Shown: positions 1 through 23,677 of the stretch, in pieces
Layout: every line of letters starts with the position of its first letter
How positions within the stretch are numbered: the stretch's first letter is position 1
Virus record (IMG/VR): IMGVR_UViG_2619619132_000007
Origin: a virus
Taxonomy: Duplodnaviria; Heunggongvirae; Uroviricota; Caudoviricetes
DNA length: 33,325 nucleotides
Direction: 5' to 3' (one strand)
Position numbers and translations under genes: made by a program
Notes under the pieces: model-generated
The model's database searches: none
Told to the model about the DNA's origin: nothing
Seen by the model: the letters and a program-made list of their open reading frames with translations, nothing else

Positions 1-40
1 TAACTTAAGGGTTGTGGTATTACGCCTGATATGATTTAAC

Positions 41-1159
41 GTGCCGATGAATTACTCTCACGATAACTGGTCAGCAATTCTGGCCCATATTGGTAAGCCC
101 GAAGAACTGGATACTTCGGCACGTAATGCCGGGGCTCTAACCCGCCGCCGCGAAATTCGTGATGCTGCAACTCTGCTACGTCTGGGGCTGGCTTACGGCC
201 CCGGGGGGATGTCATTACGTGAAGTCACTGCATGGGCTCAGCTCCATGACGTTGCAACATTATCTGACGTGGCTCTCCTGAAGCGGCTGCGGAATGCCGC
301 CGACTGGTTTGGCATACTTGCCGCACAAACACTTGCTGTACGCGCCGCAGTTACGGGTTGTACAAGCGGAAAGAGATTGCGTCTTGTCGATGGAACAGCA
401 ATCAGTGCGCCCGGGGGCGGCAGCGCTGAATGGCGACTACATATGGGATATGATCCTCATACCTGTCAGTTCACTGATTTTGAGCTAACCGACAGCAGAG
501 ACGCTGAACGGCTGGACCGATTTGCGCAAACGGCAGACGAGATACGCATTGCTGACCGGGGATTCGGTTCGCGTCCCGAATGTATCCGCTCACTTGCTTT
601 TGGAGAAGCTGATTATATCGTCCGGGTTCACTGGCGAGGATTGCGCTGGTTAACTGCAGAAGGAATGCGCTTTGACATGATGGGTTTTCTGCGCGGGCTG
701 GATTGCGGTAAGAACGGTGAAACCACTGTAATGATAGGCAATTCAGGTAATAAAAAAGCCGGAGCTCCCTTTCCGGCACGTCTCATTGCCGTATCACTTC
801 CTCCCGAAAAAGCATTAATCAGTAAAACCCGACTGCTCAGCGAGAATCGTCGAAAAGGACGAGTAGTTCAGGCGGAAACGCTGGAAGCAGCGGGCCATGT
901 GCTATTGCTAACATCATTACCGGAAGATGAATATTCAGCAGAGCAAGTGGCTGATTGTTACCGTCTGCGATGGCAAATTGAACTGGCTTTTAAGCGGCTC
1001 AAAAGTTTGCTGCACCTGGATGCTTTGCGTGCAAAGGAACCTGAACTCGCGAAAGCGTGGATATTTGCTAATCTACTCGCCGCATTTTTAATTGACGACA
1101 TAATCCAGCCATCGCTGGATTTCCCCCCCAGAAGTGCCGGATCCGAAAAGAAGAACTAA
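41..1159 (+). CDS. insL: IS186 transposase (DDE, IS4 family)
   Basis: 372-aa ORF MPMNYSHDNWSAILAHIGKPEEL...; matches IS186 InsL as I recall it, which starts at MNYSHDN (position 47). Confidence 0.85.
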   Translation: MPMNYSHDNWSAILAHIGKPEELDTSARNAGALTRRREIRDAATLLRLGLAYGPGGMSLREVTAWAQLHDVATLSDVALLKRLRNAADWFGILAAQTLAVRAAVTGCTSGKRLRLVDGTAISAPGGGSAEWRLHMGYDPHTCQFTDFELTDSRDAERLDRFAQTADEIRIADRGFGSRPECIRSLAFGEADYIVRVHWRGLRWLTAEGMRFDMMGFLRGLDCGKNGETTVMIGNSGNKKAGAPFPARLIAVSLPPEKALISKTRLLSENRRKGRVVQAETLEAAGHVLLLTSLPEDEYSAEQVADCYRLRWQIELAFKRLKSLLHLDALRAKEPELAKAWIFANLLAAFLIDDIIQPSLDFPPRSAGSEKKN

Positions 1160-1307
1160 CTCGTTGTGGAGAATAACAAAAATGGTCATCTGGAGCTTAC
1201 AGGTGGCCATTCGTGGGACAGTATCCCTGACAGCCTACAAAACGCAATTGAAGAACGCGAGGCATCGTCTTAACGAGGCACCGAGGCGTCGCATTCTTCA
1301 GATGGTT

Positions 1308-1330
1308 CAACCCTTAAGTTAGCGCTTATG
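1308..1330. repeat. IS186 right terminal inverted repeat
   Basis: 23 bp whose reverse complement (cataagcgctaacttaagggttg) overlaps the window start sequence. Confidence 0.7.
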
Positions 1331-2664
1331 TGTGCCTGCCCCCGGCTGGTACAGCCAAAGGCATCCATCTTCGTGACGTTACGACCGTAACGGGCAATGG
1401 CCTGCGTGTCCTCCACAAGCTCTGTCGCCGTCTCCCAGCCGTTATTCGGGTCAATCCAGTTCACCTCAACGGCATTATGGCGGTCCTTCAGGGCGCTGAA
1501 GCTGTAGCGGAACGGCGCGCCATCATCCGGCATCACCACATTACTGCGGTTATAGGTCCACACCTTATCTGATGGTCGGTCCTGCACGAACGTCAGCGTC
1601 TGCCCGTTCCATACCGGCATACAGCGCATCGCCGAGCAGAAATCACTGAGCACATCCCACGCCTTGCGCTGTGTGGTCAGGTACGCATTACAGGTGATGC
1701 GCGGCTCCGTGCCGCCAAAGCCGTCCGGTACTGACTGGTCGCAGTACTGGCCGATGACATACAGCGCCCATTTGTCCACATCCGCCGCACCAAGACGTTT
1801 CCCCATGCCGTAGCGTGGATGGGTCAGCATATCCCACAGACACCAGGCCATGTTGTTGCTGTATGCCGGTTTAAACGTTCCGTCCCAGATACCGCTGTAT
1901 TGCCGCGTCTGCGGGTTATAGTTCGACGGCACCTGCAGAATGCGCCCGCGAAGATGATAATTACGGCTCACCTGCTGACTGCCGAACTGCTCCGAGTCCA
2001 CCTGCACGCCGACCAGTGCCGTGTTCGGGTAGCACTGTTTCACATCGATGATTTCGGTGTATGACGACCAGAGCGTTTTGTTCTGCAACTGGTCTGTGGT
2101 GCTGTCCGGCGTCATCCTGCGCATCCGTATATTGAACGGGCGCGGCGGCAGGTTATCCACCACCACCGAGGCCAGATACTGCGAGGTGGTTTTGCCCTTA
2201 ATGGTGATGTCTTTTTCCGTCACCCAGCCACCATTACGCTGTATCTGAACCAGCAGGCGGACTTCCGACGGATTCCGGTCCCCCTTTGAGGTGGTTTCCA
2301 CCAGTGCCTGCACGCCGAAGGTAAAGCGCAGACGGTCGATGTTTGCAGACGTAATGGTGCGGGTGATCGGCGTGTCATATTTCACTTCCGTACCCAGCAC
2401 CGTCTCGGAGCCGGAGGATTCAAACCCCTCCGGCGGTGTCTGCTCCTGCTCACCGGCACGGAACACCACCGTGACACCGGAGATGTTGGTATTCCCCTCA
2501 GTGTCCAGCACCGGCGTACTGTTCAGCAGCACGCTTTTTAATCCATCCACCGGACCTTCAACCGGCCCTTCGCTGATGGCATCGATCACACTCAGCAACT
2601 GCGTGGACTTCAGGTTGTCCTTCGCTTCGCGCGGGGTATGCCCCTTACTGCTTCCTTTACCCAT
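1331..2664 (-). pseudogene. J: Tail tip host-specificity protein J, N-terminal ~445 codons only, interrupted by IS186
   Basis: Translation MGKGSSKGHTPREAKDNLKSTQLL... follows lambda J to ...TSRGQAH, then reads 19 IS-derived codons to a stop at 1270. The C-terminal ~690 codons of J are absent from the window. Confidence 0.85.
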
Positions 2665-2724: not shown

Positions 2725-3396
2725 TCAGCGACCAATCACCACAACCTGACCACCGTCCCCTTCGTCTGCCGTGCTGATCTCCTGAGAAACCACGCGAGAC
2801 CCCACGCGCATTTCCCCGTACAGAACAGGCAGAACATTGCCCTGGGCAACCATGTTATCCAGTGAGGAGAAATAGGTGTTCTGCTTACCGTTATCCGTTG
2901 TCTGTGTACGGGGAGTTCTGGCTTTCGGTGCCAGCATCTGCGCCACACCACCGAGCACCATACTGGCACCGAGAGAAAACAGGATGCCGGTCATACCACC
3001 GGTCCCAATGGCTGCCCCCCATGCTGCAAGGGTGGCTCCGGCGGTAAAGAATGATCCGGCAATGGCGGCAGCCCCCAGGACAATCTGGAATACGCCACCT
3101 GACTTGGCCCCGGCGACTCTGGGAACAATATGAATCACAGCGCCATCAGGCAGAGTCTCATGTAACTGCGCCGTTAATCCGGACGTGCTGACATCCTGCC
3201 CGGCAATCCGTACCTGATACCAGCCGTCGCTCAGTTTCTGACGAAACGCCGGGAGCTGTGTGGCCAGTGCGCGGATGGCTTCAGCCCCCGTTTTCACACG
3301 AAGGTCGATGCGGCGGCCAAATCGTTGCAAATCCCCGTAAAGGCAGATGCGCGCCATGCCCGGTGACGCCAGAGGGAGTGTGTGCGTCGCTGCCAT
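2725..3396 (-). CDS. I: Tail tip assembly protein I
   Basis: 223 aa, same length as lambda I and collinear position; overlaps K by ~100 nt as in lambda. Confidence 0.9.
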   Translation of the reverse strand: MAATHTLPLASPGMARICLYGDLQRFGRRIDLRVKTGAEAIRALATQLPAFRQKLSDGWYQVRIAGQDVSTSGLTAQLHETLPDGAVIHIVPRVAGAKSGGVFQIVLGAAAIAGSFFTAGATLAAWGAAIGTGGMTGILFSLGASMVLGGVAQMLAPKARTPRTQTTDNGKQNTYFSSLDNMVAQGNVLPVLYGEMRVGSRVVSQEISTADEGDGGQVVVIGR

Positions 3397-4037
3397 TTGT
3401 CGGTATACCTCTCTCGTTTGCTCAGTTGTTCAGGAATATGGTGCAGCAGCTCGCCATCACCACAGTAAATGGCGGCATGATTCGGCACCGATGAACCAAA
3501 ACAGCACAGCAGCACATCGCCCGGTTGTGCTGATGACAACGGCACCTGATACAGCCCTGTGGCCTCCAGATTATCCAGATAGAGATTCTGACCGTGACGC
3601 CACCAGTCATCCTCGCGATGAAAATCCGGCATCTCAATCCCCGCCAGATGATAAGCATCCCGGAACAGCGTGTAACAGTCCGTCACCCCGTGCTCAAAGC
3701 GCCGCCCGGTGAGATGCGGCACACAGCGGAACTTATGAATCGCCCCCCGGCAGACCAGCCACCACGGCAAATCACTCTGCACCTGCAGCCGCCGGTCGGC
3801 CTCACTCAGCCAGGGCAGACCACCGGGGTGGCTGTGGACCAGTGCCACAATCTCACCCTGCATTTCTGCCTGCAGCCAGTCCTCCGGCGACATACGGAAA
3901 TACGCCTCCGGCTCACCGGAGATATTCACGCAGGGGAAATATCTTTCCCCCTCCGGCGTGCTTACCACGAAGCCGCACGACTCCGCTGGCGCACATCGCC
4001 GGGCGTGCGCCAGAATCGCTGATTCTGTCTGTGTCAT
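3294..4037 (-). CDS. K: Tail tip assembly protein K (JAMM/MPN-like HSHPGG motif; NlpC/P60-like C-terminal region by recollection)
   Basis: 247-aa ORF starting 6 nt after the L stop. The classical 199-aa lambda K corresponds to the internal Met at 3893 (MSPEDWLQ...). HSHPGG motif present. Confidence 0.85.
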   Translation of the reverse strand: MTQTESAILAHARRCAPAESCGFVVSTPEGERYFPCVNISGEPEAYFRMSPEDWLQAEMQGEIVALVHSHPGGLPWLSEADRRLQVQSDLPWWLVCRGAIHKFRCVPHLTGRRFEHGVTDCYTLFRDAYHLAGIEMPDFHREDDWWRHGQNLYLDNLEATGLYQVPLSSAQPGDVLLCCFGSSVPNHAAIYCGDGELLHHIPEQLSKRERYTDKWQRRTHSLWRHRAWRASAFTGICNDLAAASTFV

Positions 4038-4042
4038 GGGAT

Positions 4043-4741
4043 TTACTGCGAAAGTTTGTTAATGGAAAGGAAGCCGCCAAAGTTGCCGACGTTATTGCGA
4101 AACTTACAGCCACTCAGGCATTTGCTGCATTTATCCTTCGTGATATCGGACGTCGGCTGGTCATATTCATCCGCGACAGCCGGACCGCTATAACCGCACT
4201 CGTCACCGCGATAGGTCCAGGTGCAGGTGTTGGCCAGCATGATACGTCCCGGAAAAACAGCGCCATCCGTTTCCGTCGGCGTGGACAGTACAAAGGAGGC
4301 ACTCACCGCGCTCAGTTCGCTGCACTGCTCGATGCGCCAGCGGCTGATCACCTCCTGCTCCGGATCGGCGTCACTGTTTCCGTTGACGAAGTTCACCGCA
4401 TCCAGAAAACGGGCGTAAACCTTACGCCGGACCACCGTTCCGCCGACCAGACTCTGCAGATCTTCCGCCATCCCGGTGACCATACCGTACAGGTTAGAAA
4501 CCGTCAGCGTGGGGCGCGTACTGGTGCCTTTGCCATTCAGTTCAAAACCGCTCCCCTGAATGGGATACGGCTGATACTGTCGCCCCTGCCAGGTGACCGG
4601 CTCACCTTTTTCGTTCTGCTCATTACAGAAAAAATAACGTTCTCCACCGACCTCTGTCAGGTCGATTTCCCAGAGCACCACGCTGGCCGACTGCTCCGCA
4701 CGGGTGCATTCATTCAGTGTTTCCTGCCGGATATCCTGCAT
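4043..4741 (-). CDS. L: Tail tip assembly protein L
   Basis: 232 aa MQDIRQETLNECTRAEQSASVVLWEIDL...; length and position match lambda L. Confidence 0.9.
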   Translation of the reverse strand: MQDIRQETLNECTRAEQSASVVLWEIDLTEVGGERYFFCNEQNEKGEPVTWQGRQYQPYPIQGSGFELNGKGTSTRPTLTVSNLYGMVTGMAEDLQSLVGGTVVRRKVYARFLDAVNFVNGNSDADPEQEVISRWRIEQCSELSAVSASFVLSTPTETDGAVFPGRIMLANTCTWTYRGDECGYSGPAVADEYDQPTSDITKDKCSKCLSGCKFRNNVGNFGGFLSINKLSQ

Positions 4742-5070
4742 CAGTTCACCACCTGTTCAAACTCTGCGCTGAACTCAACACGCAGCATACTGACCCGCGA
4801 CGACCATTTTGCGCAGGTCACCTTTATCTGCCGCCACTCATAAGGCGGCGTCCACAGAAAGGATTTCCAGCCCCCGTGCTCTTCCAGAAACGACTCCAGT
4901 ACCGTGGCCTCCTCACGGGGGACAGAAAGCGTCACGCTGTACGTTTTCAGGTTGGCATTCAGCCCGGCAGGCGCTCGCTGGGAATAGCCATCACCAAAGC
5001 GCACCTTTCTTACAGAAGGGACCGAAGCCACATCCATACCGGGTTTCACTTTCCAGCGGAAGGTCTTCAT
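4741..5070 (-). CDS. M: Tail tip protein M
   Basis: 109 aa MKTFRWKVKPGMDVASVPSVRKV...; matches lambda M in length and position. Confidence 0.9.
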   Translation of the reverse strand: MKTFRWKVKPGMDVASVPSVRKVRFGDGYSQRAPAGLNANLKTYSVTLSVPREEATVLESFLEEHGGWKSFLWTPPYEWRQIKVTCAKWSSRVSMLRVEFSAEFEQVVN

Positions 5071-7628
5071 CGTCCACCTCCGGAGAACAGGCCACCATCA
5101 CGCATCTGTGTCTGAATTTCATCACGGGCACCCTTGCGGGCCATGTCATACACTGCCTTCATCATCTGTGGACCTGGCAGACCATTCGTACCGTCGTTCT
5201 GAATCACCACGTGATTGTTCTGATTAAAATTAATGCCTTCAGCCCGCCGCATCTGCGCCGGACTTCCGGCACCGCCCACATAACCACCTTCCGCATAGCC
5301 CCGCATCAGGCGGTACAGGTTGCCCACGCCAATCCGGCTGGTTGCCTCCTTCGTGAAGACAAACTCACCACGGTGAACAATCCCCGCTGGCTCATATTTG
5401 CCGCCGGTTCCCGTAAATCCTCCGGTTGCAAAATGGAATTTCGCCGCAGCGGCCTGAATGGCTGTACCGCCTGACGCGGATGCGCCGCCACCAACAGCCC
5501 CGCCAATGGCGCTGCCGATACTCCCGACAATCCCCACCATTGCCTGCTTAAGCAGAATTTCTGTCATCATGGACAGCACGGAACGGGTGAAGCTGCGCCA
5601 GTTCTGCTCACTGCCGGTCAGCATCGCCGCCATATTCTGTGCAATACCATCAAAGGTCTGCGTGGCTGCACTTTTTACCTGCGACATACTGTCCGTGGCG
5701 CTCTCTTCCCACTCACTCCAGCCGGACTTCAGGCCTGCCATCCAGCTCCCGCGAAGCTGGTCTTCAGCCGCCCAGGTCTTTTTCTGCTCTGACATGACGT
5801 TATTCAGCGCCAGCGGATTATCGCCATACTGTTCCTTCAGGCGCTGTTCCGTGGCTTCCCGTTCTGCCTGCCGGTCAGTCAGCCCCCGGCTTTTCGCATC
5901 AATGGCGGCCCGTTTTGCCCGTTGCTGCTGTGCGAATTTATCCGCCTGCTGCGCCAGCGCGTTCAGGCGCTCCTGATACGTAACCTTGTCGCCAAGTGCA
6001 GCCAGCTGGCGTTTGTACTCCAGCGTCTCATCTTTATGCGCCAGCAGGGATTTCTCCTGTGCAGACAGCTGGCGACGTTGCGCCGCCTCCTCCAGTACCG
6101 CGAACTGACTCTCCGCCTTCCACAAATCCCGGCGCTGCTGGCTGATTTTCTCATTTGCTCCGGCATGCTTCTCCAGCGTCCGGAGTTCTGCCTGAAGCGT
6201 CAGCAGGGCAGCATGAGCACTGTCTTCCTGACGATCGCCCGCAGACACCTTCACGCCGGACTGTTTCGGCTTTTTCAGCGTCGCTTCATAATCCTTTTTC
6301 GCCGCCGCCATCAGCGTGTTGTAATCCGCCTGCAGGATTTTCCCGTCTTTCAGTGCCTTGTTCAGTTCTTCCTGACGGGCGGTATATTTCTCCAGCGGCG
6401 TCTGCAGGCGTTCATAAGCCTTCTGCGCCTCTTCGGTATATTTCAGCCGTGACGCTTCGGTATCGCTCTGCTGCTGCGCATTTTTGTCCTGTTGACTCTG
6501 CTGCTCAGCCTTCTTTCGGGCGGCTTCAAGCGCAAGACGGGCCTTTTCACGATCATCCCAGTAACGCGCCCGCGCTTCATCGTTAACAAAATAATCATCC
6601 TTGCGCAGATTCCAGATATCGTCCGCTTTCTTAAACGCGGCCTCTGCCTTAATCAGCATCTCCTGCGCGGTATCAGGACGACCAATATCCAGCACCGCAT
6701 CCCACATGGATTTGAATGCCCGTGCTGTCCTGTCTGCCCAGGTTTCCAGCGTGCCCATGTTCTCTTTCAGGCGGCGGGTCTGGTCATCAAACCCTTTCGT
6801 TGCGGCCTCGTTCGCCGCCTGCAATGCCCCGGCTTCATCGCCGGAACGCTGCAACTGAGCAACATACGCAATCTGCTCCGCCGTCACGTTATGGAACTGG
6901 CGTGCCATCGCCGTCAGCCCCGACGTCGGGTCTGTGGTCAGCTTCCCGAAGGCTTCAGCGACCTTGTCCACCTCCACGCCGGATGCAGAGGAGAAACGCG
7001 CCACACTCTGGCTGATGGACGCAATCTGAGCCTCACCGCTTACCCCCGCCTTAACCAGTGCGCTGAGTGACTCGCTGGTCTGGTTAAACGTCAGCCCTGC
7101 CGCCTGCCCGGCTCTGGACAGGACCAGCATACGATCTGCCGTCAGTCCCGCCTGATTGCCGGAAAGGACCAGCGTTTTGTTGAAATCGGACAGGGTTGAG
7201 TTGCCCTGATACCAGGCATACGCCAGCGCTCCGGTCGCCACCGCCAGCGAGGTAGCCCCCACCATCGGCAGGGTGATCGCACCGGCAAGCCCCCGGAACA
7301 TGGGGATCATCCCGCCGAAGGAGTCCTTCACCTGACCCCCCTGTTGCAGCAGGATCAGCCACGGACTTTGCCCGCCTGCAAGCTGCGTGGCCACGTCGGT
7401 GAACTGTGCAGGCAGCATACGCATGGCGGCTTTATACTGCCCGACGGAAATCCCCGCTTTCTGTGCAGCCAGCGCCTGTCGGCTCAGCGACTGTTCAACG
7501 ACTGCCGCTGTTTTTTTCGCATCAGTTTCCGTACCGGAAAAATGACGCCTGACTCTGGCCATCTGCTCGTCAAATCTGGCCGCATCCAGACTTAAATCAA
7601 CGACCAGATCGCCTACCGGTTCAGCCAT
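5067..7628 (-). CDS. H: Tail tape measure protein H
   Basis: 853 aa, same length as lambda H; Ala/Gln-rich coiled-coil centre and Gly-rich C-terminus; sits between G-T and M. Confidence 0.92.
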   Translation of the reverse strand: MAEPVGDLVVDLSLDAARFDEQMARVRRHFSGTETDAKKTAAVVEQSLSRQALAAQKAGISVGQYKAAMRMLPAQFTDVATQLAGGQSPWLILLQQGGQVKDSFGGMIPMFRGLAGAITLPMVGATSLAVATGALAYAWYQGNSTLSDFNKTLVLSGNQAGLTADRMLVLSRAGQAAGLTFNQTSESLSALVKAGVSGEAQIASISQSVARFSSASGVEVDKVAEAFGKLTTDPTSGLTAMARQFHNVTAEQIAYVAQLQRSGDEAGALQAANEAATKGFDDQTRRLKENMGTLETWADRTARAFKSMWDAVLDIGRPDTAQEMLIKAEAAFKKADDIWNLRKDDYFVNDEARARYWDDREKARLALEAARKKAEQQSQQDKNAQQQSDTEASRLKYTEEAQKAYERLQTPLEKYTARQEELNKALKDGKILQADYNTLMAAAKKDYEATLKKPKQSGVKVSAGDRQEDSAHAALLTLQAELRTLEKHAGANEKISQQRRDLWKAESQFAVLEEAAQRRQLSAQEKSLLAHKDETLEYKRQLAALGDKVTYQERLNALAQQADKFAQQQRAKRAAIDAKSRGLTDRQAEREATEQRLKEQYGDNPLALNNVMSEQKKTWAAEDQLRGSWMAGLKSGWSEWEESATDSMSQVKSAATQTFDGIAQNMAAMLTGSEQNWRSFTRSVLSMMTEILLKQAMVGIVGSIGSAIGGAVGGGASASGGTAIQAAAAKFHFATGGFTGTGGKYEPAGIVHRGEFVFTKEATSRIGVGNLYRLMRGYAEGGYVGGAGSPAQMRRAEGINFNQNNHVVIQNDGTNGLPGPQMMKAVYDMARKGARDEIQTQMRDGGLFSGGGR

Positions 7629-8459
7629 ACCGGACTCCTCCTGCGATCCCTTCTGATACTGTCATCAGCATTACGTCATCCTCCGTCATGTCCGCCACAT
7701 CCGGGGAAGCGGGGATAACTTCATTCCCGTCCGGGCCAAAGCGGACACCTCCGGCAAGCCCTGCCGCTTTCTGCATCAGCACATCATCTTCAGGCTCTTC
7801 GTCAGCCTCGCGCCGGTTCAGCAGACTGAAATCCAGCGGATGCATATCCGGATCGCTGAAAAACAGGCTGAGCACGGTGTACGTCAGCCCGGAAAAGTGC
7901 ATATCCAGCAGAACATCATGAAAATAATGGGTACTGTAAAAGCGGTGCCAGTCGGCATACTCCGTGGATGACATCCCGGCAAGCATGGCACGCCAGTCGG
8001 GTCTCCCCATCTCACGCGCCAGTTTCAGGGCAAAACTCAGCTCACCGTCGAACACTTTCCCGCAGAAACAGGCTCTGCGGGCCCGGCGTCCTCTGTCTGT
8101 TCAGGGGCATTATTCACCACAAACTCATACATACCAGACAGCCGGTACACCACGTTTTCAGCATGAGAAATTGCCTCCGTGGGCCAGGTGGTAAGCACTT
8201 CCTGCTCAATCTGTTTAACGGCTTCATTCATGGACGGCATCTGCGTCTTCTGCGGATGGTTATGCCACAGGGACATCGCCACCAGAAACGCGCCGGTTCT
8301 GATGGCGTCTTCCACAGTAAACTTCCGGTTGCTGTCTGACTCCGCCTGTTCTGCCTGCCGTTTCATCAGGGCGAGATGCTCAATGCGCTGCAGGGCTGAC
8401 AGTTCAGAAAGCGTGACGGTCACACCGTTATGTTCAAATGATTCGGTTTTCAGGAACAT
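7621..8459 (-). CDS. T: Tail assembly chaperone G-T fusion, made by -1 programmed ribosomal frameshift (T frame 7621..8055)
   Basis: T-frame ORF (144 aa) overlaps the 3' end of G; G GGA AAG heptamer is in frame in G. Organisation is identical to lambda G/G-T. Confidence 0.8.
8037..8459 (-). CDS. G: Tail assembly chaperone G
   Basis: 140 aa MFLKTESFEHNGVTVTLSELSALQRIEHL...; matches lambda G; slippery site lies at codons 134-135. Confidence 0.9.
   Translation of the reverse strand: MFLKTESFEHNGVTVTLSELSALQRIEHLALMKRQAEQAESDSNRKFTVEDAIRTGAFLVAMSLWHNHPQKTQMPSMNEAVKQIEQEVLTTWPTEAISHAENVVYRLSGMYEFVVNNAPEQTEDAGPAEPVSAGKCSTVS
8055..8061 (-). promoter_or_regulatory. -1 frameshift slippery heptamer G GGA AAG (G to G-T)
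   Basis: Plus strand ctttccc at 8055..8061 is the reverse complement of gggaaag; in the G frame it covers Gly134-Lys135. Confidence 0.8.
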
Positions 8460-8474
8460 CGCTGACTCTCCGGA

Positions 8475-9215
8475 TTAACTGGCGGTGACGGTAATTTCTG
8501 CAACCGCAGCAAACTCACCATTACCGGATACAACCGGAATGTTGACCTTGCCTGCAGCAACGCCGTTCACGGTGATGGTCATACCACTGACCGACACGGT
8601 GGCTTTTGTTTTATCCGCAGACACCGCACGAAAGCTCTTGTCGGTTACGCCCTCCGGCTGGAAGGCCACGGTCAGCGTGGTGCTCTGCCCTTTCACCACC
8701 GAGGTGCTGGCAGGCGTCACGGTCATGCCGGTTGCCGCTGTTACCGTGCTGCGATCTTCTGCCATCGACGGACGTCCCACATTGGTGACTTTCACCGTGC
8801 GGGTGATCACTTCCTTCGCCGTCACCGCCTTACCGATACTGCTGACCCAGCCACGGAACACATCGACCGTGCCGTTCGGGAAGCGGATTTTATAGGCACG
8901 GGTATCGCCTTCATTAAACCACGCCAGCAGCGCCTGCTGCCCCTGCTCTCCGGGCATCCACGCCAGCGTGAAGCTGGTATCTCCGGCAGATTTCTGCCCC
9001 TGCCCGGTCGCAGTCCAGTCTGCATCTTCATCATCGAGATAGCTGTCGTCATAGGACTCAGCGGTCAGTTCGCCGGGCGTCAGGTCTTTAACTTTTGCCA
9101 GACGCGACCAGTCAACGTCTGAAAGCGGATTCGCATAAGGGTCACCGCTCCCCTTATAAACCCACAGGGTGGTCCCGGCACCTTTCACCGGCATTACAGG
9201 ATTTGGTACAGGCAT
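8475..9215 (-). CDS. V: Major tail tube protein V
   Basis: The ORF in the track extends 10 codons upstream; lambda V (246 aa) starts at MPVPNP...; Ig-like C-terminal region. Confidence 0.9.
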
Positions 9216-9222
9216 AGCGTCC

Positions 9223-9618
9223 TCACATTTCATAGGTAATGACATAAGTCAGATCGGCTGAACTCCACAGGCCCGCATCATCGTCGCGCCGGTAGTCATA
9301 GCCGCTGGCCACCATACTGGTGATCAAATCTGACAGTGCCGGGATATCACTCATCACCGGATAAATCCGGGACTCCATCCACGCATCCAGCTCTGAATCC
9401 GGCACCTGAGCAGGCAGGAAAACTTCGATATGCAGCTCCGCCTGCCAGGTATCGCTGTCCAGCTCTTCGCCCGTGTATTCAGCGCCGGTGAGATAAACGG
9501 CAACTGCCGGAAAATCCGCCTCATCAAAAACAGCGGGGCGACCATCAAAAAACGTCGCCCCGGTGTCATGCTTCTCCAGTGCATCCAGTACGGCTGCACG
9601 GAGTTCAGTATGTTTCAT
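9223..9618 (-). CDS. U: Tail tube terminator protein U
   Basis: 131 aa [26 protein letters not shown]...; matches lambda U. Confidence 0.9.
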
Positions 9619-10193
9619 CGCTTTATTACCATCCTCAGTTGATGCTGCAGCGCATAGCCCAGCTCTTTCGGAAGACGCTCACGCCGTATCCGCTCAATAT
9701 TCTGTTTAAACGCCGTGGTCAGCGGCACCGCCATCGGGATTTTCACCACATCAATGGGGTAACGGTTTTTCCCGGCCACACGCTGCATGACATGCCAGCG
9801 GCCATTTTTCAGTTGCTGAATAAACGCGCCGGGAATACGACGGTTTCCCACCACAAGCACGCTGCCGCCACCTTTCAGGGCTGAACGCTGCCCCTTTTTA
9901 CGACGCCTGCGTCGGGACAGGACAATCCGCGCGTTACCCAGCTTTATTACGGGCAAATCCCCCCGGTTAACCTTGATTCTGGCCTGCGGATTTTTGACCG
10001 TGGCCCTTTTCAGCCTGGCCCTTTCCTTTACCAGTTTCCGGCGTACCTTTGTCTCACGGGCAACCTGTGACGCCGACTGCGATATCGCGGATGAAGCAAC
10101 GCGGTTAATGGCCATTGCGGCGGCACCGGGCACCGCCGTTCTGCTGATACGGCTGAGGTTTTCAACGGCCTGCTCAAGACCTTTTATGGCCAT
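9615..10193 (-). CDS. Z: Tail completion protein Z
   Basis: 192 aa, basic Arg-rich centre; matches lambda Z in length and position. Confidence 0.9.
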   Translation of the reverse strand: MAIKGLEQAVENLSRISRTAVPGAAAMAINRVASSAISQSASQVARETKVRRKLVKERARLKRATVKNPQARIKVNRGDLPVIKLGNARIVLSRRRRRKKGQRSALKGGGSVLVVGNRRIPGAFIQQLKNGRWHVMQRVAGKNRYPIDVVKIPMAVPLTTAFKQNIERIRRERLPKELGYALQHQLRMVIKR

Positions 10194-10204
10194 ACATCCC
10201 CCTT

Positions 10205-10558
10205 TCAGCGGCGACGGTTAACGGCAGGCGGTACGCCCCGCCCAAGCCAGAGATGACAGCTTCCGCCATCATCCGGCGAAATCCGGTCTATCCAGAAGTT
10301 TTCCTCACCGATGGTCAGCGTGTCGCCGCGCCGCAGCTGCCGCACATCATCAGTCCGGACAAACAGGAACGGGCTGGAGCCTTCAACGCGCACGCCCTGT
10401 CCGGCATAGCTGATATTTTCAGGATCATCAAAAACACCACGTATCACAGCACCGGACTGCTCACCGGATGTCATGGTGGCTGACGTTCCCATGTACCCGC
10501 GTATCGTTTCATCGGCGCGGGCAATGGCAGCATCGAACAGGTTATCGAAATCAGCCAC
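10205..10558 (-). CDS. FII: Head-tail joining protein FII
   Basis: 117 aa MADFDNLFDAAIARADETIRGYMG...; matches lambda FII. Confidence 0.9.
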   Translation of the reverse strand: MADFDNLFDAAIARADETIRGYMGTSATMTSGEQSGAVIRGVFDDPENISYAGQGVRVEGSSPFLFVRTDDVRQLRRGDTLTIGEENFWIDRISPDDGGSCHLWLGRGVPPAVNRRR

Positions 10559-10569
10559 AGCGCCTCCCG

Positions 10570-10965
10570 TTATTGCATTCTGGCCAGGCCGCGCTCTGTC
10601 ATTTCAGCTGCCACACCGGCAGAGACACGGAACGCCGTTCCCGGCAGCACAAATGCCACAGCCTCATCCCGCGTGGCGTGAAGTGCATCAGTATGCAGCG
10701 TCACCAGTGCCACAACCGTGACCAGATCAGCCGTATCAGTCACGGTATCCGGCTGCGCTGATACAACCTCATTTTCATGTCCGGTCAGCGCATTTTCCGG
10801 GCTGACAGATGTGTCCTGACCAGCAGCGTCATCCGTGTCATCAAGCTCCTCTTCCAGCTCTGCCACACGGAGTGCCAGTTCTTCTTTCGTCCCCGTCAGG
10901 CTGACATCACGGTTCAGTTGCTCACCCAGCACCTGAAGACGGGCAATCAGTTCATCTTTCGTCAT
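10570..10965 (-). CDS. FI: DNA packaging protein FI
   Basis: Lambda-like start MTKDELIARLQ... is the 14th codon of the listed ORF; C-terminus ...AAEMTERGLARMQ as in lambda FI. Confidence 0.85.
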   Translation of the reverse strand: MTKDELIARLQVLGEQLNRDVSLTGTKEELALRVAELEEELDDTDDAAGQDTSVSPENALTGHENEVVSAQPDTVTDTADLVTVVALVTLHTDALHATRDEAVAFVLPGTAFRVSAGVAAEMTERGLARMQ

Positions 10966-11006
10966 GGACTCCTCCACAGAGAGAAAATGGCCCCGAAGGG
11001 CCATGA

Positions 11007-12032
11007 TTACGCCAGTTGTACGGACACGAACGCATCAGGGTCAGCCAGCAGCATCAGCGGTGCTGACTGAATCATGGTGAACTCACGCGCCGGATCGCCG
11101 GTGGTCACCCAGTTTTTCGGGTAGCGGGCAGAGGCGTTAATACCTTCGCGCTGTGCGTCCGCATCCTGAATGCAGCCATAGGTGCGCAGACCGCGTGCCT
11201 GAGTGTTCCCCAGCACCATCGTGTTGTCCGGCAGGAAGTTCTTTTTGACGCCGTTTTCCACGTACTGTCCGGAATACACGACGATCGCCGTATCGCCATA
11301 CATCCCCTTATAGGACACCGCTTCGCCCAGATCTTTTACCGCTGTCTCCAGCTCGGAATGAGAGCCGCGACGGGTATCCAGCTTCTCCTTGACGGCTTTG
11401 AAGGAACGGAACAGCGCCCAGCCTTTCGGATCAAACACGATGATATTCACCACACCGCTGGCGTTCAGCGCGTAGGCTTCGATATCGTCGGTCGGGTCAT
11501 ACGTGGACTTGTCACGCTTGCTCCACTCCGTACCGCCGGACTGCGTGATGTTGTTCGCCACACTGCGGCCCATATCCACTTCAACCGGATCGAAGGCTTC
11601 ACCGGTCATGGTATATTTGCCCTTAAGCACGGCAGAAACGGCCTGCATCTCTTCGACCTGAGCAATGGCCAGCTCTTCGTCTCGCATGTTCTGCAGAATG
11701 ATGCGACGGCGGCGGTAAGCCGGGTCCGCCAGATTCTGTGGATCTTCATCCGGCAGGCGACGCAGGGTCATCTGCGGATTCACCTCATGCTTCGGCTTGA
11801 CATATCCCGGTGTAAATTCAGAGGTGGAGCCGCCACGGGAGCGGATAACCTCACCGGAAACAATCGGCGAAACGTACAGCGCCATGTTTACCAGTCCCGG
11901 AATTTGTGAGAGATAGACTTTCTCCGTGGTGAAGGGATAGCTCTCACGGAAAAAGAGACGCAGAAACAGCGGATCAAACTTAAATTTCTTCTCATTTGCC
12001 GCCAGCAGCTGGGCGGTTGTGTACATCGACAT
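11007..12032 (-). CDS. E: Major capsid protein E
   Basis: Lambda E start MSMYTTAQLLAANE... is codon 10 of the listed ORF; 341 aa; near-identical to lambda E as recalled. Confidence 0.92.
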   Translation of the reverse strand: MSMYTTAQLLAANEKKFKFDPLFLRLFFRESYPFTTEKVYLSQIPGLVNMALYVSPIVSGEVIRSRGGSTSEFTPGYVKPKHEVNPQMTLRRLPDEDPQNLADPAYRRRRIILQNMRDEELAIAQVEEMQAVSAVLKGKYTMTGEAFDPVEVDMGRSVANNITQSGGTEWSKRDKSTYDPTDDIEAYALNASGVVNIIVFDPKGWALFRSFKAVKEKLDTRRGSHSELETAVKDLGEAVSYKGMYGDTAIVVYSGQYVENGVKKNFLPDNTMVLGNTQARGLRTYGCIQDADAQREGINASARYPKNWVTTGDPAREFTMIQSAPLMLLADPDAFVSVQLA

Positions 12033-12087
12033 AAAAAAATCCCGTAAAAAAAGCCGCACAGGCGGCCTTTAGTGATGAAGGGTAAGG

Positions 12088-12420
12088 TTAAACGATGCTG
12101 ATTGCCGTTCCGGCAAACGCGGTCCGTTTTTTCGTCTCGTCGCTGGCAGCCTCCGGCCAGAGCACATCCTCATAACGGAACGTGCCGGACTTGTAGAACG
12201 TCAGCGTGGTGCTGGTCTGGTCAGCAGCAACCGCCAGAATGCCAACGGCAGCACCGTCGGTGGTGCCATCCCACACAACCAGCTTACGGGTGGAGGTGTC
12301 CAGCATCAGCGGGGTCATTGCAGGCGCTTTCGCACTCAATCCGCCGGGCGCGGTTGCCGTATGTGCCGGGTCACTGTTGCCCAGCGGCTGGTAATGGGTA
12401 AAGGTTTCTTTGCTCGTCAT
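12088..12420 (-). CDS. D: Capsid decoration protein D
   Basis: [27 protein letters not shown]...; 110 aa from the second Met of the listed ORF; matches lambda D. Confidence 0.9.
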
Positions 12421-12429
12421 AAACATCCC

Positions 12430-12825
12430 TTACACTGGTGTGTTCAGCAAATCGTTAACGGCATCAGATGCCGGGTTACCTGCAGCCAGCGGTGCCGGTG
12501 CCCCCTGCATCAGACGATCCAGCGCAGTGTCACTGCGCGCCTGTGCACTCTGTGGTGCAGCTGCCAGAATGCGGCGGGTCGTTTCCACGGTCATACCGGG
12601 GGTTTCGGCCAGCACGCGTGCCTGTTCTTCGCGTCCGTGAGCCTCCTCACAGTTGAGGATCCCCATAATGCGACTGTTTTCTGCCGCAACCGCTGCGGTG
12701 ATCTGCGCGTTCACGTCCGGCTGCGCCGCGCTGGCGTTCTCGCCCTCCGTCGCTTGCACCACGCCAGTAACGTCAGCCTGCGAAGCAGTGGCTGAAACAG
12801 TTGTTGATTGAGTCTCTTTGGTCAT
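12430..12825 (-). CDS. Nu3: Scaffolding protein Nu3, nested in frame in the 3' part of C (start position tentative)
   Basis: Internal Met MTKETQSTTVSATASQ... in the C frame; lambda Nu3 is known to be translated in frame inside C. The exact start is my inference. Confidence 0.45.
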   Translation of the reverse strand: MTKETQSTTVSATASQADVTGVVQATEGENASAAQPDVNAQITAAVAAENSRIMGILNCEEAHGREEQARVLAETPGMTVETTRRILAAAPQSAQARSDTALDRLMQGAPAPLAAGNPASDAVNDLLNTPV

Positions 12826-13729
12826 TCGCCCTCCTGAGAGACGGGATTTACGTGCATCCAGTGCATCACGCATGACGGTGATCGCATCGGTACTGTTAAC
12901 AAGTTCATCAGCCAGTCCGGCATCAATGGCCTCCTGACCGCTGTACACTGCAGCCTCGGTATCCAGCACAGCCTGCACGGACAGGCCGGTATATGCCGAC
13001 ACCTTCTGTGCAAACATCCGGCGGGTTGCATCCATCCGGGACTGCAGTGTTTCCCGGACATCATCCGGTAGATGGCTGTAGGGGTTGCCATCCACCTTAT
13101 GGCTGCCGCTGTAAATCAGCGTGATTTCCACGCCCTGTTTCTCCAGCGCAGCACCGTAATTACTGTGAGCCATCATGACGCCGATGGAGCCTGTCCGGGC
13201 GGTCTGCGTGACCAGACGTCGGGAGGCGGCGCTGGCAAGCAACTGACCTGCACTGCAGTTCATGTCGTTGGCCAGCGCCCATACCGGCTTTATGTCACGC
13301 ACACGGGCGATGATGTCAGCGCAGTCAAATGCCCCTGCCACCATCCCGCCTGGCGTATCCATATCGAGCAGAATGCCGTCCACCATCGGGTCGCTGGCAG
13401 CCTGTTGCAGACGGGCGATAATGCCGTTGTAACCGGTCATCCCCGAATACGGCTGCAGCGCCCGCGTCCGACTGACCAGCGTGCCGGACACCGGCAGCAC
13501 GGCGATGCCGTTCATGACCTGATAACTGCGGGCCTGTCGTGGTCCGTCATCATCAACGGATAACGCCAGCGCCGCGGGTGCCTCTCCGGCAGTCAGGCTG
13601 TCGCCGGATACCGCATCCGTCAGGCGGCTGATCCCAAGCTGGCCTGCAAGCGCACAAAAGAAAACCCGCGCATAGGCGGGTTCAAGCATCAGCGGCTCAT
13701 TAAAGGCCATACTGGCAATATGCGGGAGA

Positions 13730-13749
<20 letters not shown>
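12430..13749 (-). CDS. C: Capsid assembly protease C
   Basis: 439-codon frame equal to lambda C in length; starts at an in-frame GTG (plus 13747..13749 cac) within a longer ORF; overlaps the B 3' end by 20 nt as in lambda. Confidence 0.85.
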
Positions 13750-17430
<3,681 letters not shown>

Positions 17431-17456
<26 letters not shown>

Positions 17457-17976
17457 TCAGCAACCCCGGTATCAGTTCATCCAGCGCGGCTGCTTTGTTC
17501 ATGGCTTTGATGATATCCCGTTTCAGGAAATCAACATGTCGGTTTTCCAGTTCCGGAAAACGCCGCTGCACCGACAGGGGGATCCCGTCGAGAATACTGG
17601 CAATTTCACCTGCGATCCGCGACAGCACGAAAGTACAGAATGCGGTTTCCACCACTTCAGCGGAGTCTCTGGCATTTTTCAGCTCCTGTGCGTCGGCCTG
17701 CGCACGCGTAAGTCGATGGCGTTCGTACTCAATAGTCCCTGGCTGGAGATCTGTCTCGCTGGCCTGCCGCAGTTCTTCAACTTCCCGGCGCAGCTTTTCG
17801 TTCTCAATTTCAGCATCCCTTTCGGCATACCATTTTATGACGGCGGCAGAGTCATAAAGCACCTCATTACCCTTGCCACCGCCTCGCAGAACGGGCATTC
17901 CCTGTTCCTGCCAGTTCTGAATGGTACGGATACTCGCACCGAAAATGTCAGCCAGCTGCTTTTTGTTGACTTCCAT
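17431..17976 (-). CDS. Nu1: Terminase small subunit Nu1
   Basis: 181 aa MEVNKKQLADIFGASIRTIQNWQEQGMPVLRGGGKGNEVLYD...; matches lambda Nu1, winged-HTH N-terminus. Confidence 0.9.
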
Positions 17977-17994
17977 TGTTCATTCCACGGCCAA

Positions 17995-18153
17995 AAACAG
18001 AGAAAGGAAACGACAGAGGCCCAAAAGCTCGTTTTCAGCACCTGTCGTTTCCTTTCTTTTCAGGGGGTATTTTAAATAAAAACATTAAGTTACGACGAAG
18101 AAGAACGGAAACGCCTTAAACCGGAAAATTTTCATAAATAGCGAAAACCCGCG
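17995..18153 (-). promoter_or_regulatory. cosB region (terminase gpNu1 R-site repeats)
   Basis: Three cgtttcc-containing repeats near 18001..18016, 18041..18060 and 18098..18113 between the Nu1 start and cosN, as in lambda cosB. Confidence 0.6.
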
Positions 18154-18165
18154 AGGTCGCCGCCC
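18154..18165 (-). other. cosN cohesive-end site (12-nt overhang sequence)
   Basis: Plus strand aggtcgccgccc is the reverse complement of the lambda cohesive end GGGCGGCGACCT; flanking sequence matches the lambda left and right ends. Confidence 0.85.
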
Positions 18166-18364
18166 CGTAACCTGTCGGATCGCCGGAAAGGACCCGCAAA
18201 ATGATAATAATTATCATCTGCATGTCACAACGTGCATCTACGCCATCAAACCACGTCAAATAATCAATTATGACGCAGGTATCATATTAATTGATCTGCA
18301 TCAACTTAACGTAAAAACAACTTCAGACAATACAAATCAGCGACACTGAATACGGGGCAACCTC

Positions 18365-18598
18365 ATGTCAACGAAGAACAGAACCCGCAGAACAACAACC
18401 CGCAACATCCGCTTTCCTAACCAAATGATTGAACAAATTAACATCGCTCTTGAGCAAAAAGGGTCCGGGAATTTCTCAGCCTAGGTCATTGAAGCCTGCC
18501 GCCGGAGACTGTGCTCAGAAAAAAGAGTTTCTTCTGAAGCAAACAAAGAAAAGAGTGACATTACTGAATTGCTCAGAAAACAGGTCAGACCAGATTGA
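18365..18598 (+). pseudogene. Small ribbon-helix-helix-like ORF (YnfO-like, 77 codons) with an in-frame TAG at codon 40
   Basis: ATG at 18365 gives MSTKNRTRRTTTRNIRFPNQMIEQINIALEQKGSGNFSA, then TAG at 18482..18484, then 37 more in-frame codons (VIEACRRRL...RPD) to TGA. Absent from the ORF track because each piece is under 60 aa. Confidence 0.55.
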
Positions 18599-18640
18599 AG
18601 CAATTTAGATAATCGTGCAGACTACGCCCCCTCATATCAC

Positions 18641-19066
18641 ATGGAAGGTTTATCTATGGATCAGGTAGTCATTTTTAAACAAATATTTGATAAAGTTCGA
18701 AACGATTTAAACTATCAATGGTTTTATTCTGAGCTAAAACGTCACAATGTCTCACATTACATTTACTATTTAGCCACAGAGAATGTTCATATTGTATTAA
18801 AAAATGATAATACAGTGTTATTAAAGGGCCTAAAAAACATTGTGTCTGTCAAATTTTCAAAGGATAGGCATCTTATAGAAACGACCTCTAATAAGCTGAA
18901 ATCCAGAGAGATCACATTTCAGGAATACAGAAGAAACCTTGCTAAAGCAGGAGTTTTTCGGTGGGTTACAAATATCCACGAACAAAAAAGATATTACTAT
19001 ACCTTTGATAATTCATTACTATTTACTGAAAGCATCCAGAAAACTACACAGATCTTACCACGCTAA
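18641..19066 (+). CDS. ydfO: DUF1398-family prophage protein (YdfO/YbcV-like)
   Basis: 141-aa low-GC ORF; likely true start MDQVVIFKQ... at 18656; sits after cos as ydfO does in K-12 Qin. Confidence 0.55.
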
Positions 19067-19217
19067 ACCATAACGTCCGGCTTCTCTCACTCCTGAGCCG
19101 GACTGCATTGGTTTAATAAAAACCATCAACAATTGTGATTTAGATATTCGGAACCATTCAAATATAACAAAACCCCGTAAAAACGAGGTTTATGGATAAA
19201 TTTTATTATTGAATACA

Positions 19218-19394
19218 TCAGATTAAATTAATCTTGACATCATAGCTTTCAAGACCCGTCATTTTTTCCCGTGCGGTAAACTGAATACTGGTAACTTCTT
19301 TCCCGGTCTTTTTCTTAAGTTCAATAATTTTTTTTGTTATATATTCAGAAATATCTGCTTCTGCTTTTGTTTTTAAGTTTTCAATATTCATCAT
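19218..19394 (-). CDS. gnsB: GnsA/GnsB-family small protein
   Basis: My translation: MMNIENLKTKAEADISEYITKKIIELKKKTGKEVTSIQFTAREKMTGLESYDVKINLI (58 codons); below the ORF-track cut-off. Confidence 0.65.
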   Translation of the reverse strand: MMNIENLKTKAEADISEYITKKIIELKKKTGKEVTSIQFTAREKMTGLESYDVKINLI

Positions 19395-19562
19395 TTCCTC
19401 TTTTAGTCTGTTATGACTTTCCAGTTACACAGTAAGTCGATTATATGGTGCAAACGTGTAAAAGATAAGATGAAACATCGCAATAATCAACATACGATAG
19501 TCTAAATTTTACACAAACAGACAAAGAGAATTTTCCTGAATTATCAATGCAATAGCATCAAA

Positions 19563-19793
19563 TCAACTCAAGAGCCTTATTGCTGCTTCCAGAATTTCTT
19601 CTGAAGTAACATGTCGATCCGCGGCTACATAAATGACTTTATGATCTCCGGTCAGAGATGGAAACCCTGCGGCCATTACAGTAAGGTGTGTTTTTTCGCC
19701 ATTTGGATATTCACGCATGATGGTGTTAACTCCAGTCATCGCTGGCACTACCACTGCTGGTTCAGAGTTAAAAAAAACTATGATTTTTTTCAT
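19563..19793 (-). CDS. Hypothetical small prophage protein
   Basis: The listed ORF starts at a TTG; the first ATG gives MKKIIVFFNSEPAVVVPAMTGVN... (76 aa). Weak Shine-Dalgarno sequence. Confidence 0.35.
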   Translation of the reverse strand: MKKIIVFFNSEPAVVVPAMTGVNTIMREYPNGEKTHLTVMAAGFPSLTGDHKVIYVAADRHVTSEEILEAAIRLLS

Positions 19794-19835
19794 GATGTTA
19801 CCGTAGTATGTGAGTATCCATCGAATAGACACCAA

Positions 19836-19858
19836 GCAAAAAAGCTCCCGAAGGAGCC
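19836..19858 (-). terminator. Rho-independent terminator downstream of cspI
   Basis: Minus strand ggctcc-ttcg-ggagc hairpin followed by tttttt. Confidence 0.5.
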
Positions 19859-20064
19859 TTCATTTTCACTTTTTTAAATCCAACGACAGACGGCTGGCAT
19901 TTAAGTATTGTGAAATATTATCAAATGTAATCATCATTGATTTACAAAAGATACATTTTGCCCCGAAAGGATTCATGTCAGAAACATCAAAAGATGATGT
20001 TCTATACTGGGAACCATGACAACACGGGCATCTAAAGTGAATATGGTTTGTAATATTGTCTACC

Positions 20065-20277
20065 TCAAAGCGCCACTACATGAACAGCGGCAGGACCTTT
20101 AGGTCCGTTCTCAATACCAAATTCAACTTCCTGATTCTCAGTTAATGTTTTGAAATCGTTGCTCTGAATTGCTGAGAAATGGACAAACACATCTTTGCTG
20201 CCATCTTTCGGCGTGATGAAACCAAAACCTTTTTCAGGGTTAAACCATTTCACTAAACCAGTCATTTTGTTAGACAT
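20065..20277 (-). CDS. cspI: Cold-shock protein (CspA family)
   Basis: 70 aa [37 protein letters not shown]...; RNP1/RNP2 motifs; position matches Qin cspI. Confidence 0.8.
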
Positions 20278-20639
20278 AATTATTACCTTTTGAAGAAATT
20301 AGCCCTTGGGCAGAATGGTCCGAAAAAAAATATCAGAGAGAAAAACCAACAAGGAAATCTCAAGAGGTACAAATAATAAAATTATAACAATGACTGCTTC
20401 AGATAAATTTGTAACAAACCAGAACACCATTAACGCATGATTAACCACCCATAGCAAGGATTACTTTTGTAAAGAAAAACACAGCAATGAAAGAATAGCT
20501 TTATTTATTAATAAAACGTGTCATTCTGATTAAGACCTTTTATCTTACCCTTAAGATTTCAGGAATTTTGGCTCATGGAAGAGTCCTTTTTATTTAAATT
20601 TTACATTCCGCGATGTAAATGTTCCGATTTAATATTACC

Positions 20640-21663
<1,024 letters not shown>

Positions 21664-21667
<4 letters not shown>

Positions 21668-21975
21668 AGATATTTATGATGAGGACGCTCGTGCTTATTG
21701 GCAGGATTTTCAATCTTAAAGGAGTACTGATGCTGCAGATAAGACTCAACTTTTTCTGACAATTTTTCTGCTACTTCCAGGAAGACTTGCCGGACGCTCC
21801 TTCTGGCTGCTGCCTCATAAAACTCCAGCGCAGCTCCTTCAACACGGTCCATGGCGACATCCAGGTCAAAAATTTCACCGTCAAAGCGTTCTTTGTCCTG
21901 TAAGGCTACAGTTACCGTAACTTTATTCTCAAAATTACGGACTCCTTTCACAACCAGTTCATAGTCTTGAGTCAT
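21664..21975 (-). CDS. ydfR: Hypothetical protein between holin and endolysin (YdfR-like)
   Basis: 103-aa ORF translationally coupled to both neighbours. Confidence 0.55.
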
Positions 21976-21979
21976 TGGA

Positions 21980-22195
21980 TTACTCTCCTCTCGCAGCCTT
22001 ACGCCTGTCTTCTTTAATCTTGAAATAAAGATTTGTCAGATACGTCAGCAGGCCAAAAACCAGGCTACCCAGCACACCGATTGCAGCCCACTGTGACGGA
22101 GTTACTTTATCGAGTAACTGCAATGCCCAGAAACCAGCATTCCCCGCCGATGTGCCATAGGCAACACCTGTTGTTAACTTATCCATTGATTTCAT
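21980..22195 (-). CDS. essQ: Class II holin (S21 pinholin-like) with dual-start motif
   Basis: [71 protein letters not shown]; two TM segments; Met1/Met4 dual start typical of holin/antiholin pairs. Confidence 0.75.
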
Positions 22196-22414
22196 ATCCT
22201 CACCCCGATGTACACGGATGGTGCAATATGTTTGAAAAGATCGGAGTCTACGGGGTAGTTTTGACAGCACACGTTGTTCTCAACGGCGCTAAAAAAACAT
22301 ACACATTAAAAATGTGGGTAATTATTTTGAAAGAAAGTCATATATAAAATAATAATACGAGAAATGTTTTCATATTTAGTGTACTGTATACGGCCATTTA
22401 TACAGGAAAAGCCT

Positions 22415-22585
22415 ATGTCAGAACGTAAAAACTCAAAATCACGCCGTAATTATCTCGTTAAATGTTCCTGCCCAAACTGCACCCAAGAGTCAGAACACAG
22501 TTTTTCAAGAGTACAAAAAGGTGCCCTTTTGATCTGCCCTCATTGCAACAAAGTATTCCAGACAAATCTTAAAGCTGTAGCCTGA
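22415..22585 (+). CDS. Small zinc-ribbon protein (CxxC...CxxC)
   Basis: MSERKNSKSRRNYLVKCSCPNCTQESEHSFSRVQKGALLICPHCNKVFQTNLKAVA; good Shine-Dalgarno (aggaaaag) upstream of ATG at 22415. Confidence 0.45.
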   Translation: MSERKNSKSRRNYLVKCSCPNCTQESEHSFSRVQKGALLICPHCNKVFQTNLKAVA

Positions 22586-22642
22586 TTGATTTTATTAGTA
22601 ACAAGTATTTTTTATATTTTAATAATATATTTAAAGCAGATA

Positions 22643-22666
22643 ATAAAAAACCCGCCTGAGCGGGTT
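22643..22666 (-). terminator. Rho-independent terminator (cspB 3' region)
   Basis: aacccgc-ctga-gcgggtt hairpin with a T-run on the minus strand. Confidence 0.5.
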
Positions 22667-22948
22667 TGAGATTGTGGTGCTTTTTGTGGGAGTCATCCAC
22701 TTACGCACTTTGTTTTGCCATGCCAGCAGTTAGCTTCTGCTGTAAAACTATTCATGCAGCAAACCTGCACTTCACCACAATGGTTAGCATACTTTTCCTG
22801 ATTAAGATTTTGCCAAATATGCTAGCCATTGTTTCATGTATTGGACCTCCTTACTTTTTATTAAAGAGATCCAATATTCACTACTCTGTCCGTATCTCTA
22901 CTCAGGCATCAGCCTTCTTCGTTATCGTATACAGACGAGCGATGAATT

Positions 22949-23164
22949 TTAATCAGTAATGATGACATTTGCTGCTGCAGGACCTTTAGCACCACTCTCT
23001 ATAGAGAAGGTAACCTTTTGACCTTCAAATAAGGTTCGATAATTATCATTCTGAATCGCAGAAAAATGCACAAACACATCTTTACTACCATCAACAGGAG
23101 AAATAAAGCCGAAACCTTTATCAGCGTTAAACCATTTTACTAAACCAGTCATTTTATTTGACAT
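22949..23164 (-). CDS. cspB: Cold-shock protein (CspA family)
   Basis: 71 aa [51 protein letters not shown]... Confidence 0.8.
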
Positions 23165-23464
23165 TCTACATTCCTTAACTTGAGCCTTTCGGCATAAATG
23201 GTTTGCATAACAGAAACGACTTCGTACTTAATTGGAGAGACTCAAAGAAGGAATAAGTGAATAACACCTGAAATGAGAACTGCTTTAGTAAACTACTTCG
23301 TATATCGTCTGTTCTTCAAACCGACGCAATCATTAACGCATAGTTGAACATATGAAGCAATGTTTATTTTAGACATCCAGCCATCTTCAACCCCATCAAA
23401 AAACTATAGCTTTCTTCAGGAACGTGTGTATAGTGCGCCAAGTTATCAGTATTAAGGAATTTTT

Positions 23465-23677
23465 TTGTCCCGTAAAATGACAGGAATTGTCAAAACCTTT
23501 GACGGCAAAAGCGGCAAGGGTCTTATCACCCCATCCGATGGTCGTATCGATGTCCAGCTTCATGTTTCAGCGCTCAATCTCCGCGATGCAGAAGAAATTA
23601 CCACCGGATTACGCGTGGAATTTTGCCGGATAAATGGTCTGCGTGGCCCTTCAGCTGCCAATGTTTACCTTTCATGA
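23465..23677 (+). CDS. cspF: Cold-shock-like protein (CspF/CspH type)
   Basis: 70 aa [70 protein letters not shown]. Confidence 0.8.

Follow-up and report, generated by a model that had tools for sequence, protein, structure and literature searches.

IS186 abuts a truncated lambda-type tail-tip gene J in a Qin-type prophage

The stretch of viral DNA analysed here, which we call the window, comprises 33,325 nucleotides (IMG/VR record IMGVR_UViG_2619619132_000007) and is the whole of a short-read draft contig that ends inside repeat elements. Positions 1-1330 are occupied, on the plus strand, by the insertion sequence IS186 (IS4 family), from its tenth base to its last. Aligned with IS186A of Escherichia coli K-12 MG1655, all 1330 of the 1330 bases are identical, with no mismatch or gap, a near-identity to the reference of about 1.34 kb that assigns the element to IS186. 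The perfect 23-bp terminal inverted repeat of this element (CATAAGCGCTAACTTAAGGGTTG at the K-12 left end) was read directly and compared with K-12 at both ends; it is complete on the right, where it adjoins J (1308-1330, caacccttaagttagcgcttatg), and is represented by 14 of its 23 bp on the left (1-14, taacttaagggttg). The missing 9 bp (cataagcgc) lie off the contig end. Short-read assemblies break in repeats, which accounts for a contig that stops within IS186. The transposase gene insL, with coordinates transferred from K-12 insL1, to which its DNA is identical, lies at 47-1159 on the plus strand and encodes 370 amino acids from the K-12 start; the mechanically called open reading frame begins at a GTG at 41, encodes 372 amino acids and ends at the same position. 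It belongs to Pfam family PF01609 (DDE_Tnp_1, E=1.6e-26), as the single DDE transposase InsL of the element, and is convergent with the adjoining gene.

That gene is the 5' part of the tail-tip, or host-specificity, gene J (codons 1-445, positions 1331-2664, minus strand). The junction between the two, GCGCTTATGTGTGCCTGCCCCCGG, falls exactly at the terminal IS nucleotide, and codon 445 (CAC) straddles it, its third base being window base 1330. Residues 1-444 are 99.1% identical to J of phage lambda (J02459.1, 15505-16836) and match the solved lambda tail-tip chains PDB 8IYK and 9E7M over the same span, and the gene stands after I, K, L, M and H, in an order identical to that of lambda. The remaining reading frame joins 445 J residues to 19 IS-encoded ones (ISANLRVEPSEECDASVPR), with a stop at 1270, 19 codons into the right end of the IS. 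The resulting 464-residue frame (1270-2664, minus strand) contains FNIII-A_GpJ (PF24801) and a cut Phage-tail_3 domain (PF13550, profile positions 1-114 of 164), and is annotated as EYE13428.1, 'phage tail family protein'. A tblastn search with proteins of the relative L005 detected no J sequence past codon 445 anywhere in the window; only residues 1-445 of a protein of about 1132-1165 residues are encoded, and J here is a gene fragment that should not act as a functional gpJ member. A preliminary description of this DNA had named the element as IS186 and the interrupted gene as lambda J, breaking at about codon 445 into the IS186 terminal repeat at 1330, and all of these assignments agree with the alignments. 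It had also suggested that the other IS186 end be sought upstream, whereas only 9 bp are lacking and that end lies immediately off the window.

What could such a fragment still do? The lambda gpJ is built of hub domains, FNIII-1/2, a helical shaft, a central fibre and a C-terminal receptor-binding domain, and it closes the tail tip as a trimer (PMC11101478). Compared with this architecture, the 445-residue fragment holds part of the hub domains only; the remainder of the hub is missing, as are the two FNIII domains, the helical shaft, the central fibre and the LamB-type receptor-binding domain. Because only part of the hub is present, the fragment should be unable to form a closed trimeric tip or to bind a receptor, and we infer a loss of J function. 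J initiates lambda tail assembly, and J-defective lambda mutants show a tail-less phenotype. Given this initiating role, heads without tails would be a likelier phenotype than non-adsorbing particles. The lambda mutants owe their defect to point or amber mutations, whereas the lesion in the window would be an IS insertion at codon 445.

The other late genes are well preserved. Nineteen further tail and head genes (I, K, L, M, H, T, G, V, U, Z, FII, FI, E, D, C, B, W, A and Nu1/nohA) occupy 2728-17976 on the minus strand, and tblastn with the proteins of the closest complete relative, L005, finds every one of them, from I to Nu1, at full length (100% coverage, no gaps or stops), with Pfam matches for I, K and L; the earlier impression that the morphogenetic genes outside J are intact thus holds for 19 of 19. 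From nohA to ydfW (17448-28968, 11,521 bp) the window is 99.8% identical to, and colinear with, the cryptic prophage Qin of K-12, through nohA, cspI, rzpQ, rrrQ, essQ, cspB, cspF, ydfT, ydfU, rem, hokD, relBE, flxA and ydfW. K-12 Qin has lost every head and tail gene between nohA and stfQ, whereas the window prophage keeps them, the 19 genes from I to Nu1 at full length and J cut. The closest complete relatives, like the metagenome contig L011 described below, sit in ydfJ (the window's own attachment ends lie outside the contig), and the relatives carry pinQ, tfaQ, relBE, hokD, dicA and dicC, as Qin does. On this comparison the window element is a long form of Qin.

In the intact relatives L001 and L005, and in lambda itself, the site at which J is broken reads without interruption (...cagcccggcgcggtgtgcctgcccccggctgg... 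or ...GCGCGGTGTGCCTGCCCCCGGCTGG...), and the N-terminus of J in L001 is identical to that of the window. The pre-insertion target is GGTG(TGCCTGC)CCCC, in J codons 441-446 (coding strand GGGGGCAGGCACACC). IS186 targets GGGG(N6/N7)CCCC, inserts in either orientation and hits single sites repeatedly, and 7 of 59 recovered sites deviate from the motif by 1-2 bases (Lee et al. 2016, PMC5009759). The J site differs from the motif at one base, whether its core is read as N6 (TGCCTG) or as N7 (TGCCTGC), so that what had first been noticed as a GC-rich target is a near-consensus one. Across the prophage region of ~43 kb there are ~18 one-mismatch IS186 loci, the J site among them, and no perfect target. 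The IS186 insertions described in K-12 (fimA, menC and others; PMC5009759) involve the same element and the same palindromic target of a G run and a C run; compared with them, the site in the window carries one mismatch (GGTG) and lies inside a phage structural gene.

The geometry of the junction likewise follows that of IS186 in K-12. There, IS186A sits at GGGG(ATCACT)CCCC with a 10-bp duplication (flanks ...GGGGATCACTCC|IS|GGATCACTCCCC), and therefore the duplicated segment is the core together with two bases from each of the G and C runs. The right flank in the window begins at the base equivalent to that of IS186A in K-12 (TG|TGCCTG...). The left copy of the duplication falls outside the window, and its length, 11 bp, is deduced from the intact sites, the K-12 calibration and two other datasets, L011 and L003, in which the left-hand flanks end ...GGTGTGCCTGCCC|CATAAGCGC. 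The overlap between the right flank of the window and these left flanks is the 11-bp sequence TGTGCCTGCCC, the size expected of a duplication at an N7 site, and its right-hand copy would occupy 1331-1341.

The continuation of J beyond the IS, with this 11-bp overlap, is seen in an independent public sequence, the 66.8-kb metagenome contig OLIQ01000077.1 (L011). At 13877-14017 its J codons 442-1165, a 725-aa J 3' reading frame, meet an IS186 left end precisely where this is predicted (...gcgcggtgtgcctgccc|cataagcgctaacttaagggttgtggtattacg), the left end being the one that the orientation in the window requires. The contig includes 124 bases of the IS: the first 9 supply the cataagcgc that the window lacks, and the remaining 115 agree base for base with window positions 1-115. 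Downstream of the J 3' frame come lom, stf (side tail fibre), tfaQ, pinQ and ydfJ. With strain FDAARGOS_1249, L011 shares 99.88% identity, but the window, on the other side of the site, shares only 98.06% with that genome; L011 and the window may therefore represent different mosaics or a separate event.

A third dataset, L003 (IMGVR_UViG_2585427793_000007), comes from E. coli 3-373-03_S4, an isolate from another subject. At its positions 4199-4245 the 3' part of J is joined to the right end of IS186 at the same J base, in the opposite orientation. The J 3' DNA of L003 and that of L011 are only 93% identical. Since the orientations are opposite, the subject is different and the J 3' sequences are diverged, there appear to have been at least two independent IS186 insertions at this J base. 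With the window and L011 in one orientation and L003 in the other, the site would have received the element both ways, as single sites of IS186 in K-12 do. We also considered a composite or inverted double-IS structure, since the IS end attached to the J 3' part in L003 is the right one, as it is for the J 5' part in the window. It is disfavoured by the different subject from which L003 derives (3-373-03_S4) and by the 93% identity of its J 3' part to that of L011; two independent insertions are simpler. Given the 11-bp duplication, the terminal CAT of the IS provides the J 3' part with an ATG in frame, and the resulting C-terminal J frame has 691 residues in the strain of L003, where it is annotated as KDU23284.1, and 725 in L011. 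No obvious ribosome-binding site lies upstream of this frame.

How widespread is the junction? None of the 5,426 complete RefSeq E. coli genomes contains it, whether searched with the whole 3.4-kb region or with a 201-bp junction probe, and none contains the opposite-orientation junction of L003, while 446 of the 5,426 carry at least 80% of the prophage backbone (window 1331-26000). The window's own right junction was likewise not found in IMG/VR or in a one-genome-per-species collection. The exact 464-aa fusion frame occurs on 5 contigs of 20-50 kb, among them contigs from two or more colony assemblies of E. coli 1-110-08_S3 (GCA_000601175.1 and GCA_000601155.1); it is annotated in 1-110-08_S3_C1 and _C3, colonies of a gut isolate from one stool sample, and the longest contig, at 33,325 bp, has the length of the window. 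For this frame, unlike that of L003, an 'ENA' source is recorded as well, which hints at a metagenome sample shared with L011. Ten predicted partner proteins were looked up by exact sequence, a type of match that any single residue difference defeats, and none was found: these were the J 3' frames of L001, L005, L006 and L008 (two possible starts each), an alternative-start J 3' frame of L003 and the predicted fusion of the J 5' part to the left IS end. The real J 3' sequence, that of L011, differs from the best of these candidates at 29 residues, so the exact look-up is uninformative.

The lon promoter is a hot spot of IS186. Because IS186 ends occur repeatedly at one J base and the sequence there fits the known motif, the J site may be regarded as a candidate preferred target, although with 0 of 5,426 complete genomes carrying the junction it would be a modest hot spot at most. 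We mention only tentatively, as a generalization that is rather unlikely to hold in full, that IS186 might recurrently land at J codons 441-446 and, by knocking out the lambda-type tail tip in either orientation, disarm Qin-type and other lambdoid prophages, leaving a free C-terminal J of 691-725 residues, with the fibre and the receptor-binding domain, that could in principle be made. As a separate observation, the partial J protein HCO6654627.1 (P0009), of 444 aa, ends at codon 444 at the end of a 3186-bp contig. Its end may mark a further break at the same J site; since the ends of other partial J proteins are scattered over many positions, the agreement may be a coincidence.

Taken together, these data are best read as a simple insertion of IS186 into J, to which we assign a probability of roughly 85%. 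A copy of the active type, identical to IS186A of K-12, would have entered the J gene of this lambda-like prophage of Qin type through the DDE cut-and-paste transposition usual in the IS4 family, choosing a near-consensus target and duplicating 11 bp. J would thereby have been split into a 5' frame of 445 J and 19 IS codons, which lies in the window, and a 3' part, from codon 442 to the end, which would lie beyond the left end of the IS. The left junction predicted for the window's strain is J 3'-TGTGCCTGCCC-CATAAGCGC...GTTGTGGTATTACG.

Two other explanations of the same junction have to be weighed. In the first, the IS186 copy is the end-point of a rearrangement, either subsequent to the insertion or due to recombination with a further IS186 copy, that deleted or moved the 3' part of J together with lom, stf and tfa, and J does not continue beyond the start of the window. 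Such an outcome would suit a left junction that lies outside the window, a contig with an IS element at either end and the failure of the exact look-ups to find any predicted J 3' frame, and deletions and recombinations mediated by IS elements are common, with 98 recombinations recorded against 758 insertions (PMC5009759). The same counts, however, place simple insertions ahead by about 8 to 1, and failed look-ups weigh little when one residue difference defeats an exact match. Moreover, in L011 the J 3' part meets the left end of IS186 at the expected base and has the whole distal Qin arm attached, and we consider a rearrangement distinctly improbable. Scarcely credible is the second, an assembly artefact in which a J contig was chimerically joined to a collapsed IS186 repeat while J stayed intact in the genome. 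In its favour, the window comes from a short-read draft and ends in repeats, and the named-strain assemblies are colonies from one stool sample, presumably processed by one pipeline. Against it, the join respects both the exact last base of the IS inverted repeat and an IS186 motif site, which makes a random chimera unlikely. The join is also present in separate assemblies of the colonies, in which the contigs stop at differing places in the IS, and IS186 ends are seen at this J base in two further datasets.

What, then, does the insertion in J mean for this prophage? The feature is real and its first reading was correct, but as an IS lesion it is ordinary and of a familiar kind, with little import beyond annotation; the repeated insertion of IS186 at the J site, with its ends at the same J base in three public datasets and probably at least two independent events, is only a mildly new point. 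The insertion does explain where the contig ends, and it identifies the 464-aa 'phage tail family protein' of GenBank as a J-IS fusion artefact. A second lesion lies at the opposite end of the contig. Based on tblastn with a relative, the replication gene O is represented by its last 114 codons (208-321; 32583-32924, minus strand), and is followed at 32926-33325, likewise on the minus strand, by the end of an IS3-family element, beginning tgaaccgccccgggtttcctggagag, inside which the contig stops. This piece was identified from its translation, which resembles the C-terminus of a transposase with an integrase core, and from its E. coli matches, which are annotated 'IS3 family transposase'. O is thus a second essential phage gene cut by an IS, and the early region holds an ISNCY transposase remnant and two pseudogenes that are common to the relatives. 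Since O is disrupted by an IS and older pseudogenes are present, J would not be the sole reason for a failure to produce phage. The window prophage, damaged by IS186 in J and by the IS3-family element in O, differs in this from K-12 Qin. To judge from its sequence it is already decaying, and this Qin-type prophage may be flagged as having defects in J and O at least, both of them essential genes.

Some further features of the prophage may be recorded. Rfam detects two thermoregulator leaders of the cspA type, which lie upstream of the genes cspI and cspB (20038-20423 and 22933-23325, minus strand), and a sok antitoxin RNA (30171-30342, minus strand) beside the ISNCY transposase remnant. The sok RNA suggests that there is a hok/sok locus here, which K-12 Qin does not have at this place. 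At 28784-30097, on the minus strand, one continuous 437-aa reading frame runs over both the ISNCY pseudogene ('missing C-terminus') and ydfW, which are annotated separately in a related complete genome.
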